Assembly (NCBI GenBank): GCA_963826715.1
Contig: CAWGYA010000006.1
Location: 64,001 to 128,000, forward strand
Source: Candidatus Bathyarchaeota archaeon
Lineage (GTDB): Archaea; Thermoproteota; Bathyarchaeia; Bathyarchaeales; Bathycorpusculaceae
Direction of reading: 5' to 3'
DNA: 64,000 nt
Part shown: positions 3,995 through 63,844 of the stretch, in pieces
Layout: each line of letters opens with the position of its first letter
How positions within the stretch are numbered: position 1 is the first letter of the stretch
Translations under genes and position numbers: made by a program
Notes under the pieces: generated by a model
Seen by the model: the letters and a program-made list of their open reading frames with translations, nothing else
Databases searched by the model: none
Told to the model about the DNA's origin: nothing

Positions 3995-4429
3995 AGTTCA
4001 TCAACCTTTTTTTCGATAAAATTCGATGAATTGCTTGTTGACGTTTTATTATTTTAGGCTTTGTAGTTGTATTCTTACAGTCACAGGTTAAGGTTCTGTT
4101 TAACGTTTTTCAGGGGTTATTTTTTCGCTGGGTTGCTTAACAATCGTTTCACAATCAAAATGATCCTGTTTTTATTTCTATGTCCCGCACGTAGGTAGTC
4201 ACTAATACGCCAGTTGTTGAAATCTTGCGTTCTAGGAGCTTAAAAGAAGCTGCCATAATGATACCTATAGGATCATTTCAAGGTCAAAGTTTTGGCTTGA
4301 AACTCCATTAACGTTTACACTAAAATGCAAAACCGTGGGACCCTCGTTATGAATTCAGAAGGATTAAGTTTGATATCAAAAAAGAGGGGAAAATGGGAAA
4401 ACCTAAATTTCTTTTTCTTCCACTCAATA

Positions 4430-4683
4430 TTGCAGATCTGGTCTGAGCCTTATTGTCGAACGCAGCCCATCTAAACCACGTCTTAGCTGCAACAGATTCG
4501 TTCGCCGCTTGGAATCGCTGCATCATGGAGTAGATGCTTCAACAGCACATGACCAGCCCACAAAGGCAAAGACTTAGTCGCGGGCCAATCGTTCGCTGTT
4601 TAGAGTGGCTCACATCTGTGCCTTGTGCATGCGTCTAAAGCTTGCTCCCAGACCTGTAACTACAATTAGAGCAGGGTCTGCTA
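4430..4683 (-). ncRNA. Putative unannotated structured RNA (about 250 nt)
   Basis: Nested stems with many G-U pairs on the minus strand; TATA-like TTTTATAG at 4711-4704 upstream; T-rich tract at 4402-4378 downstream. Confidence 0.6.
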
Positions 4684-4781
4684 TAAATTTTGTGACATAT
4701 ATGCTATAAAAGCAAACAAAAATGTATCATTTAGTACAACAGTTTGGGTAAACTCAGAAAAAAAATTTAATACCAACCCGG

Positions 4782-4799
4782 TAACTATACATATAGTTA
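4782..4799. promoter_or_regulatory. Palindrome TAACTATA-CA-TATAGTTA
   Basis: Perfect 8-bp inverted repeat upstream of the putative ncRNA promoter. Confidence 0.35.
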
Positions 4800-4878
4800 T
4801 CCAAACGGCAAAAAATTACTTGTCAACTCTAAAGGTTTAGATTCTTCACAACTCAAGCAAGCAATTGATTCCAAAAAT

Positions 4879-5223
4879 TTATTCTAAATCTTTTACAATA
4901 CAGCTCATCTGTGAGATAACTTCTTTCTGCAGAGTATTCACAAGTTCGAAAGTTAAATCGTCGATAACTTGATGAATGTCAGGATCCACAATGGAGTACA
5001 TGCGTTTGGTTCCATCTTTACGACAACGGATTATGCCTACGTCCCGAAGGATTTTTAGATGTCTAGATACAACGGGTTGAATGAGGTTCAGGTGAGGAAC
5101 GATTTCACAGACACATTTTTCGCCGTCACGTAGAAAAGAGAGAATTTCTAAGCGGTCAGCTGAGGATAGAGCGTGGAATACTTGGGCTTTGAAGCGGAGT
5201 CGGGTAGAAGTTTGTAGGGTCAT
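4879..5223 (-). CDS. ArsR/SmtB transcriptional regulator
   Basis: FHALSSADRLEIL..GEKCVCEI..VSRHLKIL. Confidence 0.92.
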   Translation of the reverse strand: MTLQTSTRLRFKAQVFHALSSADRLEILSFLRDGEKCVCEIVPHLNLIQPVVSRHLKILRDVGIIRCRKDGTKRMYSIVDPDIHQVIDDLTFELVNTLQKEVISQMSCIVKDLE

Positions 5224-6491: not shown

Positions 6492-6579
6492 GCAGGGGTC
6501 GCCAAGCCAGGTCAAAGGCGTAGGCTTCAGGAGCCTATCCCGCAGGGGTTCGTGGGTTCAAATCCCACCCCCTGCACCA
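6492..6579 (+). tRNA. tRNA-Leu(CAG)
   Basis: Cloverleaf with long variable arm; anticodon arm TAGGC-TT-CAG-GA-GCCTA; encoded CCA. Confidence 0.97.
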
Positions 6580-21028: not shown

Positions 21029-21102
21029 GGCCGGGGCCGAGATTTGAACTCGGGCGAAAGGCTCCACAGGCCTCTATGCTGCCAAGCTACATCACCCCGG
21101 CC
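21029..21102 (-). tRNA. tRNA-His(GTG)
   Basis: Cloverleaf; anticodon arm GAGGC-CT-GTG-GA-GCCTT; encoded G-1 and C73. Confidence 0.96.
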
Positions 21103-56462: not shown

Positions 56463-58025
56463 TTAGGCAACTTCCTTCTTCTTTTTCACTGCTCTTTTAG
56501 GCTTAGCACAAGCTTTCACAAACCCAGCTTTGACCTTCGAGTCTGCAGGCTTAATTTCAGCTTGTTCTACCATTTCTCCTCGTTTAGCTTTGATGACACG
56601 GACTTCTTCAAGAATGCGAGTTAAGAGCTGTTCGTCGGTTAAAATTCCTGGCGGGGGTTCAACTACTTTTTTGAGGGTAATTGGAACTGAGTCCATGCGA
56701 TATGCGGTGCCTTCATATTCTATGCCACACCATTGAGCAGGGAACACAACGTCACCTAAGCGTGAAATAGCATTCATATCGGGATTGATAGTGATTAAGG
56801 GGTGCTTCATCATGTTTTGCACCGCAGTCTTGGGAAAGTGGGCACCGGGATCAGCAGAGATAACCAAGGTTGCATCGATATCGCCGCGCCTGAGCAGATC
56901 AACAGTCGTGTTTTCACCAGGGTTATATTGAGGATATCCTTGCGAGAAGTCTATTGCATATGGGTAGCCTGTTTGCCAAGCAAAAACCACATTTGCGCCT
57001 GTAACATTGAAGTGCCCCCTCATAGGTGAGATGACGAATTTGGTTTTTCGGTTAAGGTCACGTGCTAGTGCTATGGCGATTTCTATGTTTCGGAATCTAC
57101 CTAGGCTCTGTGTCATGCCGAGCCCGAAGAAGATGGTCCCGAACTCACAGTTCACCATTGCGTCTGCAACGTCGCGCAGAGAATCTACTGGGATACCGCC
57201 GACTTTATCAACATCGAGTTCTTGGTCGTTAACTAGGCACCGTAGCGCCTCGATTACGTCATAGTCTCTGTTAGGTTCAATCTGTAAGAAGTAGTCTGCC
57301 GCTTCCGCAGTCATAGTTTTTCTTACATCTACTACAATCATTTTACGACCGGGTTTATCCATCGTCTGAGGCGGAGGTCCATTGTAACAAACCTGCGAAC
57401 GGACATTTGGAGTAACACGTGCTATTCTTTTAGAAGCCACCTCCATCTTTTTGCGACCTGCACCTGCCTTTAGTTTCTGCATGTAGCTTTTCCATTCGCT
57501 ACCCTCAAAGCGACCATCAGTGAAAGCTGTGTAGCGTTCGACGTGGCGAGGGTGGGAGGTCCAGGGGTTGCATGCCCAGTAAACAATTAAATCAGCGCGG
57601 TGACGAATCTGCCCTAACGTTGCAGCGGGGATACCAATTTCCTGTGTTGCCATAACAGAGGGACCATGGCATACACTGCAACAATTATCGAGTGCAGAAC
57701 CTAATTCTTCAGCCAATGCTACACCAATACGTTGCGCTTCCCCGACGGTGCTACTCCAGCCAAAAAGCAGAGGATACTTTGCGTCTGTAAGGATTTGGGC
57801 GGCTTTGCGGATTGCTTCATCCATCTTAACGGGCACTAGTTTACCTTCTTTGCGTATCATTGGTTTGAGGATACGCTCGTCGCTTTTGTAGCCATGCACC
57901 ATCTTGGCTTCACAGACAGCGCAGCCGTTCTTCATCTTCACGATCTCATTGTTTTCCACTGTTACTTCTAAGTCGTCGCATAGGCAACCACATATTGGAC
58001 AAACAACGTCTTTAATTTCTGTCAT
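56463..58025 (-). CDS. fwdB: Formylmethanofuran dehydrogenase subunit B (Cys form)
   Basis: CPICGCLCDD, VCHGP, HPRH, MRGHFNV, YRMD. Confidence 0.96.
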   Translation of the reverse strand: MTEIKDVVCPICGCLCDDLEVTVENNEIVKMKNGCAVCEAKMVHGYKSDERILKPMIRKEGKLVPVKMDEAIRKAAQILTDAKYPLLFGWSSTVGEAQRIGVALAEELGSALDNCCSVCHGPSVMATQEIGIPAATLGQIRHRADLIVYWACNPWTSHPRHVERYTAFTDGRFEGSEWKSYMQKLKAGAGRKKMEVASKRIARVTPNVRSQVCYNGPPPQTMDKPGRKMIVVDVRKTMTAEAADYFLQIEPNRDYDVIEALRCLVNDQELDVDKVGGIPVDSLRDVADAMVNCEFGTIFFGLGMTQSLGRFRNIEIAIALARDLNRKTKFVISPMRGHFNVTGANVVFAWQTGYPYAIDFSQGYPQYNPGENTTVDLLRRGDIDATLVISADPGAHFPKTAVQNMMKHPLITINPDMNAISRLGDVVFPAQWCGIEYEGTAYRMDSVPITLKKVVEPPPGILTDEQLLTRILEEVRVIKAKRGEMVEQAEIKPADSKVKAGFVKACAKPKRAVKKKKEVA

Positions 58026-63766: not shown

Positions 63767-63844
63767 TGGTGGGGCTTCCCGGATTTGAACCGGGGTCTAT
63801 AGCGCCCGAGGCTACAAGCCTAGACCAAGCTAGCCGAAAGCCCC
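63767..63844 (-). tRNA. tRNA-Pro(CGG)
   Basis: Cloverleaf; anticodon arm GTAGC-CT-CGG-GC-GCTAT; encoded CCA. Confidence 0.96.

Follow-up and report, generated by a model that had tools for sequence, protein, structure and literature searches.

The window analyzed here, i.e., the whole 64,000-nucleotide (nt) stretch of DNA of which a part is given above, carries on its minus strand a stand-alone gene for a structured noncoding RNA (ncRNA) that runs from about position 4658 to about 4378. Its core corresponds to the match of covariance model R1 at window 4428-4661 (186.1 bits). An earlier note, made from the letters alone, had proposed at this place a new archaeal ncRNA class under RNA-level selection and had guessed that the DNA comes from Bathyarchaeia. 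The guess was correct, and the proposed class is borne out by the lack of any Rfam match, by more than 100 homologues that are confined to Bathyarchaeia among the genomes searched, and by compensatory changes in 47 of 64 base pairs. The gene is delimited by the following features:

4681..4687, minus strand: TATA box TTTATAG, about 30 nt upstream of P1, the terminal helix of the RNA
4378..4658, minus strand: predicted transcript of about 280 nt, its start placed by the TATA position and its end by a T run
4384..4431, minus strand: 3' tail with a conserved GAGUGGAAG at 4417-4425; the closing strand is degenerate in the window copy
4378..4383, minus strand: T6 run, likely an archaeal termination signal

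The TATA-like box that had been seen upstream recurs across the family. In 63 of 76 family members, a TATA-like hexamer, searched for as a regular expression, begins 29-32 nt ahead of the first pair in P1, the remaining 13 have variant TATA boxes at the same place, and the short and variant forms of the RNA in other families show the same TATA-to-P1 arrangement. Every lineage inspected thus appears, from its sequence, to have its own promoter for the RNA gene. The usual distance between TATA box and start is well established for archaea, and because of this spacing and the TATA position the start is expected at the first bases of P1 (about 4658). At the other end, the RNA had been drawn to 4430, and the transcript probably extends past this point, to about 4378, where the downstream T-tract of the earlier note lies as the T6 run. 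In most type I relatives (the subtype of the window copy) a conserved AAGUGGAAGAAAAA is found 3' of P1, and its GUGGA pairs with a UCCAC directly before T6-T8, enclosing a variable inner hairpin, i.e., these genes end in T6-T8 after a 3' hairpin. A scan of the window for bacterial-type terminators found no hairpin terminator on the minus strand.

The intergenic gap around the RNA measures about 885 nt and is flanked by the gene of an ArsR-family regulator (PF01022) upstream and that of a PF06983 protein downstream. A palindrome described earlier at 4782-4799 is present as a perfect 8 + 8 inverted repeat with a 2-nt center, TAACTATA-TG-TATAGTTA, in the stretch that separates the RNA promoter from the ArsR-family gene (4879-5223, minus strand); it may act as the terminator of the latter gene or as an operator.

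The family fold and its modules

That the minus strand is structured, as had been read from the window alone, is supported by its stability: positions 4425-4690 fold at -88.5 kcal/mol (z -2.30; 2 of 200 shuffles were as good), and the plus strand of the same region folds no better than its shuffles (z -0.04). In an alignment of 76 sequences, the structure given below pairs in 93.7% of cells, against 28-42% for partners slid by 1-3 columns, the 47 pairs mentioned above show changes on both sides, and none of 500 shuffles reaches any of five measures. Homologues and covariation, whose absence would have spoken against the earlier note, are thus present.

The true structure was found because the RNA is internally repeated. 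It contains two paralogous stretches, in both of which a hairpin loop, AAAACAGCGAAAA in one and AAAACGGYGAAAG in the other, precedes G-NNN-AAGAC, and these stretches belong to paralogous hairpin modules. One to three of these modules, two in the window copy, are carried by a frame that consists of the terminal helix P1, helix Y and, between them, a purine-rich internal loop of 6 x 5 nt that is nearly invariant (GAGYAN/UYAGA). No sequence element other than this internal loop is present in every form of the RNA. In the window, the parts are arranged as follows:

4648..4657, minus strand: 5' strand of P1, partner 4432-4441; 7 of 10 pairs changed on both sides, 94.1% of cells pair
4432..4441, minus strand: 3' strand of P1, partner 4648-4657
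4642..4647, minus strand: 5' side of the internal loop, GAGCAA (family GAGYAN), nearly invariant in alignments A2, A4 and A6
4442..4446, minus strand: 3' side of the internal loop, UCAGA (family UYAGA)
4636..4641, minus strand: 5' strand of helix Ya, GCUUUA, partner 4447-4452; invariant here
4447..4452, minus strand: 3' strand of helix Ya, UAAGGC, partner 4636-4641
4545..4635, minus strand: module A, with Yb (4628-4632/4547-4551), P2 (4620-4627/4559-4567), A-rich bulge (4572-4579), P3 (4603-4613/4580-4590), loop (4591-4602) and pseudoknot A (4595-4598 with 4554-4557)
4453..4544, minus strand: module B, with Yc (4540-4544/4454-4458), P5 (4528-4536/4468-4476), A-rich bulge (4481-4488), P6 (4512-4521/4489-4499) and pseudoknot B (4504-4507 with 4463-4466)

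Each module has the shape of a bent hairpin, in which a basal helix (CAUNNNNGC/GCNNNNAUG) with its continuation, a one-sided 8-nt A-rich bulge (G-NNN-AAGA), an 11-base-pair upper helix and a 13-nt loop follow each other. The loop CRGY pairs with an RCYG one base 3' of the basal helix, and the resulting pseudoknot covaries (CAGC:GCUG, CGGC:GCCG, CGGU:ACCG). Changes on both sides are found in 8 of 9 pairs of P2 and all 11 of P3 in module A, and in 7 of 9 pairs of P5, 10 of 11 of P6 and all four of pseudoknot B in module B, the latter pairing in 98% of cells; pseudoknot A is invariant in the long forms and covaries in the short ones. In two-module forms, helix Y opens as a three-way junction of Ya (GCUUUA/UAAGGC), Yb and Yc, of which Yb (UGCA/UGCA, with 10 double-change cells in 41 type I sequences) closes module A and Yc (UGUUG/CAACA) closes module B. 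The extension of helix Ya covaries in the short and variant forms.

The short forms (141-146 nt) contain a single module and occur mostly outside the order to which the window belongs. In these RNAs, P1 runs via the conserved internal loop into a long helix Y that is stacked on the module; across 21 of them, pairing holds in 93.5% of cells and compensatory changes occur in 34 of 43 pairs, and for the pseudoknot 2 of 4 pairs are changed on both sides with 96.4% of cells pairing. Three-module forms of about 330 nt were observed at L035, L097 and L099 and at G013:C12:34742-35065, the last with three matches to the single-module covariance model R2, and their additional unit repeats the loop, the AAGAC bulge and the pseudoknot strand ACCG. 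Lastly, 11 variant forms of about 160 nt share only the frame, i.e., a P1 with 13 covarying pairs, the loop GAGYAN/UUAGA and helix Y, and have a different apical part; 19 of their 25 predicted pairs are compensatory.

Compared with this fold, about half of the secondary structure drawn in the earlier note was wrong. Its terminal helix (4648-4659/4430-4441), its AGCUUUA/UAAGGCU stem and its hairpin B are kept family-wide as P1 (4648-4657/4432-4441), Ya (4636-4641/4447-4452) and P6 (4512-4521/4489-4499), respectively. By contrast, its hairpin A (4578-4590/4551-4563), its stem 4599-4610/4464-4475 and its GACGC/GCGTT pairing together pair in 60.2% of cells over 76 homologues, compared to 59.4% in shuffles; they are specific to the sequence of the window and clash with the covarying P3, P2 and P5. 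The presence of hairpin A in the minimum-energy fold of the single sequence is explained in part by two mismatches that the window copy carries in the true P3, and the 5' arm of the AACAGCG/TGCTGTT extension proposed for it overlaps the P3 loop and pseudoknot A. The suggested GUCUU/AAGAC pseudoknot rests on an A-to-U change at 4572 that is specific to the window, since both sites read AAGAC in the family consensus. A first RNAalifold model from 24 close relatives, with GCUUU/GAGGC and GCCU/GGGC pairings, was also dropped; these pairings were replaced once the module paralogy and the short forms had revealed the true P2 and helix Y.

Distribution and relation to known RNA classes

A blastn search with positions 4400-4720 gave matches in 26 of 61 genomes, including the window's own. 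Apart from the latter, 22 of 36 genomes of the genus matched, with identities of 66-77% and in some cases with two or three copies. A gapped pattern of three conserved blocks was also searched across one genome per prokaryotic species and gave 101 loci; the 80 loci listed include 70 with a Bathyarchaeia or Bathyarchaeota label (one of them Candidatus Bathycorpusculum) and five with broader archaeal labels, and three of the four bacterial matches are chance occurrences without the rest of the RNA. Two full-length homologues (L045 and L102) lie on contigs binned as a Limnocylindrales bacterium and as Methanocella, which are probably mis-binned Bathyarchaeia. Of 151 genomes sampled from the class, 25, belonging to nine families, have a match to covariance model R1. 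In a sample spanning the phylum, R2 detected the RNA in 7 of the 20 genomes from the class and in 0 of the 131 from other classes, while the family pattern gave 0 matches in viral contigs. Among the genomes searched, the RNA appears to be restricted to Bathyarchaeia.

The RNA is present in 1 to 4 copies per genome, e.g., as one long and three short forms in G052, or as tandem genes about 860 nt apart in G015 (C18:56925-57141 and 57783-58005, locus L012), which has a third copy on another contig. In the window's own genome, R1 found two copies, the second one (197.8 bits) being located 29 kb away on the same contig, upstream of the window and outside it (G000:C6:35370-35596, plus strand; locus L134 1501-1727). 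This copy is a two-module 'type II' form (GGAAGUACGCUUUAA...) with the promoter motif ATTGNC-N-TTTTGYNCAARA-N-TATAT.

Rfam at gathering threshold reported only three tRNAs over the whole window, namely, at 6492-6576 (plus strand), 21029-21101 (minus strand) and 63770-63844 (minus strand), the first of which is 85 nt long, suggesting that it has a long variable arm or contains an intron. At E up to 10, the region 4250-4900 gave five rows at chance level, far under their gathering scores, and at E up to 1 none of 11 diverse members had a match at the RNA, i.e., the Rfam check that had been suggested, run on the window copy and these 11 members, returned no family. The RNAs of the signal recognition particle (SRP; RF01857) and of ribonuclease P (RNase P; RF00373) resemble the family in being stand-alone archaeal ribonucleoprotein RNAs of a few hundred nt with paired ends, and the two-hairpin junction topology is misleading at first sight. 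As the earlier note had stated for their cores, both are absent here: there is no match to the SRP model at E up to 10 in 4250-4900 and none to the RNase P model, whose conserved P4 regions are CR-I and CR-V. The genome has its own standard copies above gathering score at G000:C8:1251245-1251560 (SRP RNA, 151.9 bits) and G000:C2:42497-42795 (RNase P RNA, 170.2 bits), and because no model matches and both RNAs are encoded on other contigs, the RNA is neither of them. The self-cleaving ribozymes in Rfam (hammerhead, twister, pistol, hatchet and hepatitis delta virus-like) gave no match at E up to 10 in the window region or at E up to 1 in the 11 members.

Archaeal H/ACA RNAs consist of one to three hairpins, each with a pseudouridylation pocket, a kink-turn in the upper stem and an ACA after the lower stem. 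The family likewise has one to three hairpin units, with an ACA 6-9 nt past each basal helix; its loop pairs with the same flank as the covarying pseudoknot, its internal loop is a one-sided 8-nt bulge, and the sole H/ACA-type Rfam row scores 19 bits versus a gathering score of 64 and lies in the 3' tail (4390-4424), outside the core. In a kink-turn, a 3-nt bulge precedes tandem sheared G.A pairs that directly adjoin a canonical helix. A kink-turn of the L7Ae-binding type at the internal loop between P1 and Y was rejected on register, because the covarying pairs fix the register of helix Y and leave a 6 x 5 loop in which a canonical helix cannot abut the GA; tandem G.A pairs could still form there.

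The RNA was also considered as a coding sequence or as the leader of a downstream gene. A 59-amino-acid open reading frame (ORF) overlaps it at 4347..4526, and its frame is open in 24 of 76 homologues, with 1252 of 1479 internal gap runs not being multiples of three; no overlapping ORF is conserved, in agreement with the earlier statement that there is no credible one. A riboswitch or cis-acting leader was rejected as well: in 13 of 25 RNA loci, the closest ORF downstream is convergent, i.e., encoded by the opposite strand, and the largest cluster of shared flanking genes comprises 4 of the 25. In the openly available parts of the literature on ncRNAs and riboswitches of Bathyarchaeota/Bathyarchaeia and on archaeal structured ncRNAs, subscription journals lying outside this coverage, no description of the RNA was found. 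Judged by its sequences, the RNA forms a new class, with a candidate new ribonucleoprotein.

The divergent neighbor and the lysW operator

Genes next to the RNA differ between loci with one exception. For the short forms, 9 of 19 loci, in four families, have a common divergent neighbor, an ORF of about 212 amino acids, and the genes on the other side differ. The encoded protein has no Pfam or NCBIfam family and no recognizable DNA-binding domain. Its homologues number at least 3730; none has a name other than 'hypothetical', if any, and the labels, where given, are Bathyarchaeia. The protein was found in 74 of 151 sampled genomes of the class, once per genome and at 50-75% identity. The protein is present in 23 of 25 RNA-positive genomes, the two without it being 85% and 68% complete. 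RNA and protein gene are divergent and 80-520 nt apart in 12 of the 25 model-positive genomes (six in family f11, three in f23, two in f25 and one in f27). Scanning the neighborhood of the protein gene in other families, with filters off, added 11 genomes in which the weaker matches, the variants of about 160 nt, are divergent to it (three in f14, two in f27, two in f10, one in f22 and three in other f1 genera), bringing the divergent linkage to 23 genomes in 8 families. In the window's own genome, the protein gene is unlinked to the RNA (G000:C8:317537-318166, minus strand; locus L163 1450-2133).

A structural model of the protein (predicted local distance difference test score 91.1) consists of an N-terminal helical hairpin and a restriction-endonuclease-like core. 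In VIA-align comparisons, it matched 3dnx (Z 9.3, root-mean-square deviation 2.6 over 105 aligned residues), XisH (2okf, Z 9.1), AF1548 (1y88, Z 8.4) and the NucS nuclease domain (2vld, Z 7.1), all over residues about 46-202, and Foldseek gave weak matches only, from the same superfamily (best E 2.4e-3). According to this model, the protein has the fold of the PD-(D/E)xK superfamily. Residues D81, E94 and E96 are invariant, T97 occupies the canonical lysine position, and K119 is invariant in the next helix. Sequence motifs of the protein family are an invariant KINHS, D81, E94-x-E96-T and SKI-RY (relatives in L164-L193).

A second link concerns the promoters. In type I RNA genes, they read AAATGGNRCA, 13 nt, TTGTNNCA, 5-6 nt, GTCRCAA and then the TATA box, and in the window these three boxes are located at:

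4723..4732, minus strand: operator box 1, AAATGATACA (consensus AAATGGNRCA, from the upstream alignment)
4702..4710, minus strand: operator box 2, TTTATAGCA (consensus TTTGTNNCA), with one mismatch to the pattern
4688..4696, minus strand: operator box 3, or element proximal to the transcription factor B recognition element (BRE), GTCACAAAA

The only other such site in the window's genome lies upstream of a 67-amino-acid ORF that ends in EDWGE and is LysW by Pfam (PF21344, 41.4 bits). A scan of 41 genomes of the genus with at most one mismatch gave 58 places in 31 genomes and 0 for a reversed control. Out of 27 places inspected, 22 are before a lysW-like ORF, four before an RNA of the family and one before something else; nine more places coincide with RNA loci from the blastn search. 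In the places inspected, the operator thus seems to mark almost only lysW, which serves lysine/arginine biosynthesis via the LysW carrier, and the family RNAs. Two RNA subtypes in the genus use it, namely, type I (the window's) and type III. A second lysW-like ORF (...GGGGCVDLQELTIEGEDWGE) at L241 and L248 (G003 and G004) stands behind the operator variant typical of 'type III' RNA genes, and because of this the operator variants do not separate lysW from RNA targets. Of the 41 genomes, 9 contain the type II promoter motif, at 11 places in total; at least five of these places are type II RNA genes, with no other gene class among those inspected.

In the available part of PMC3597687, the Sulfolobus lysW operon is described as being controlled by the Lrp-like LysM with lysine as effector, via a LysM box that is a 15-bp palindrome of the type GTACGATTAGCGTAC. 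The likeness lies in a lysW promoter with an upstream operator, which here also drives RNA genes; the three boxes (AAATGGNRCA, TTGTNNCA and GTCRCAA) differ in sequence from the LysM box as given in that part. The lysW operator and the gene of the PD-(D/E)xK-fold protein were also observed near each other, i.e., divergent and about 1 kb apart in G025 (C2:77865-77907 and 78900-79535), and about 10 kb apart on contig C8 of the window's genome, which may be residual synteny.

Possible roles of the RNA

Several known systems share traits with the family. Tandem-aptamer riboswitches, such as that for glycine, have repeated homologous domains that are pseudoknotted or closed by a junction, with unpaired conserved bases suggesting a pocket, as is seen here; unlike them, the present RNA lies outside any 5' untranslated region, has its own promoter and terminator and no conserved downstream gene, and matches nothing in Rfam. 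In type III toxin-antitoxin systems, tandem repeats precede, and are co-transcribed with, the gene of a ToxN/AbiQ-fold endoribonuclease. ToxI-like RNAs resemble the family in their repeated pseudoknotted units and their link to a nuclease-like protein, where more units could bind more protein. This candidate was nevertheless rejected: the RNA gene is divergent from the protein gene instead of upstream on the same strand, the structural neighbors of the protein are PD-(D/E)xK proteins and not ToxN, and inheritance seems to be vertical and to extend over the whole clade, with one protein copy in each genome and no viral or mobile context found. The Oap partners of OLE RNA are membrane proteins, whereas the candidate partner here is a soluble PD-(D/E)xK-fold protein. 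OLE RNA and its Oap proteins, as far as the available part of PMC9723947 describes them, share with the present system a stand-alone, structured, lineage-restricted RNA with covariation and conserved unpaired nucleotides, together with a biochemically uncharacterized protein that is genetically linked to it. Compared to OLE on the same basis, there is no sequence or model similarity, and the RNA here is archaeal, shorter (140-330 nt) and built from one to three repeated units.

The explanation considered best, and given an even chance, is that this Bathyarchaeia-specific RNA gene produces an RNA that acts in trans within a ribonucleoprotein, with the PD-(D/E)xK-fold protein as the likeliest partner. 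Transcription would begin with the first pair of P1, some 26 nt beyond the midpoint of the TATA box, and end at the oligo-T run, and the RNA would become the RNA component of the particle, joined by the protein of about 212 amino acids whose gene would be its ancestral divergent neighbor. Because the internal loop is the only element common to all forms, it may be a shared recognition site, i.e., a common handle, and each module may be a unit for binding that can be repeated. In the genus of the window, the RNA genes would have left their protein neighbor and multiplied, and their expression is probably tied to lysine/arginine supply because two subtypes use the operator otherwise found at lysW.

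Several points weigh against this explanation. The protein is commoner than the RNA (74 of 151 genomes versus 25 plus 11 variants). In family f24, it occurs in 27 of 27 genomes, where R1 found the RNA in one of 27 and R2 in 0 of 5. R2 with filters off found nothing beside the protein gene in f20, f17, f24, f26 and f32, and a search for the frame pattern in ten f24, f20 and f17 genomes gave three coding-like matches, about the rate of the reversed control. Since f24 and f20 have the protein without detected RNA, the pairing is not obligate, and no linkage between the two genes is seen in the window's genus or in f7 and f21. Moreover, the adjacency count of 23 genomes is biased because the 11 variants were sought only beside the protein gene, and the co-occurrence figure of 23 in 25 is overstated because related genomes are not independent. 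With T97 in place of the lysine, nuclease activity of the protein is uncertain as judged from its residues. The window copy itself has mismatches in 2 of 11 pairs of P3 and 2 of 9 of P5 as well as a degenerate 3' hairpin, and the shared operator could reflect promoter capture instead of a functional tie to lysine.

The same observations allow other explanations. It is possible, if doubtful, that the RNA works alone or with other proteins, e.g., as a scaffold, a sponge or a self-assembling RNA, and that the divergent layout reflects shared bidirectional control in which the protein would be a DNA-binding regulator. The families with the protein and without detectable RNA and the unlinked genes in three lineages would agree with this, as would the spacing of mostly 80-330 nt between starts, since a divergent layout is typical of a regulator and its target. 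However, the protein has no recognizable DNA-binding domain, and its class-wide identity and the many invariant polar residues in its nuclease-like core look enzyme-like. It is unlikely that the RNA is instead a trans-acting sensor of lysine metabolism, with modules that bind lysine, arginine, an intermediate or tRNA-Lys and that adjust a downstream process, the nuclease-like neighbor being incidental or downstream. The operator that types I and III share with lysW in the genus would fit such a role, and so would the aptamer-like module (a bent hairpin with A-rich bulge, loop-to-flank pseudoknot and near-invariant unpaired bases), its tandem arrangement in one to three units as in riboswitch aptamers, and the bulge UAAGA or AAAGA (variant AAAAC), which contains the lysine codons AAG and AAA. 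Yet the operator link is found in one genus only, the ancestral short forms have other promoters and type II its own motif, no downstream gene is regulated in cis, the bulge also reads AAU, AGG, AUG or CAG in single modules, and complementarity of 3-5 nt is weak evidence.

A self-cleaving or otherwise catalytic RNA is very improbable: the pseudoknots and the near-invariant unpaired nucleotides in junctions and bulges would suit one, but the Rfam ribozymes did not match within the E limits given above, one to three modules in one frame fit binding units better than a single active site, and no link to repeats, mobile elements or viral contigs (0 matched) was seen. A cis-acting leader or riboswitch of a downstream gene, a decayed coding sequence, or a diverged SRP or RNase P copy has next to no probability. 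The long intergenic gap and the overlapping 59-amino-acid ORF speak for this group of readings, but the downstream genes differ and are often convergent, the reading frame is mostly closed and its gaps ignore the triplet, and the genome has standard SRP and RNase P RNAs elsewhere.

To our knowledge, few structured RNA classes are known in archaea besides rRNA, tRNA, RNase P RNA, SRP RNA and guide RNAs. Bathyarchaeia are abundant and globally important archaea of sediments and soils that are experimentally poorly characterized. The present RNA is a well-supported new family for this class, with more than 100 members, a pseudoknotted fold backed by covariation, clear gene boundaries and natural one-, two- and three-module forms, and its small modular fold is an attractive target for structure determination. 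Two handles on its function are at hand, namely, the nuclease-like protein family, which lacks a Pfam model and merits a family definition of its own, and the promoter architecture common with the lysW operon. RNA, protein and promoter are all open to in vitro study without culturing the organism.

An extension of the ribonucleoprotein proposal, held to be distinctly unlikely, is that the RNA and the PD-(D/E)xK protein form a new archaeal system in which the RNA controls a nuclease, as an inhibitor or decoy, a guide or a substrate-like regulator, and which is wired to amino-acid status in the window's genus. Paralogues with two to three modules would then be expressed jointly with the lysW pathway for lysine/arginine, and the conserved (U/A)AAGA bulge of each module may serve to read the status of lysine or tRNA-Lys. 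If true, this would be a trans-acting, protein-coupled counterpart of the bacterial amino-acid-sensing RNAs, in a phylum without a cultured model.

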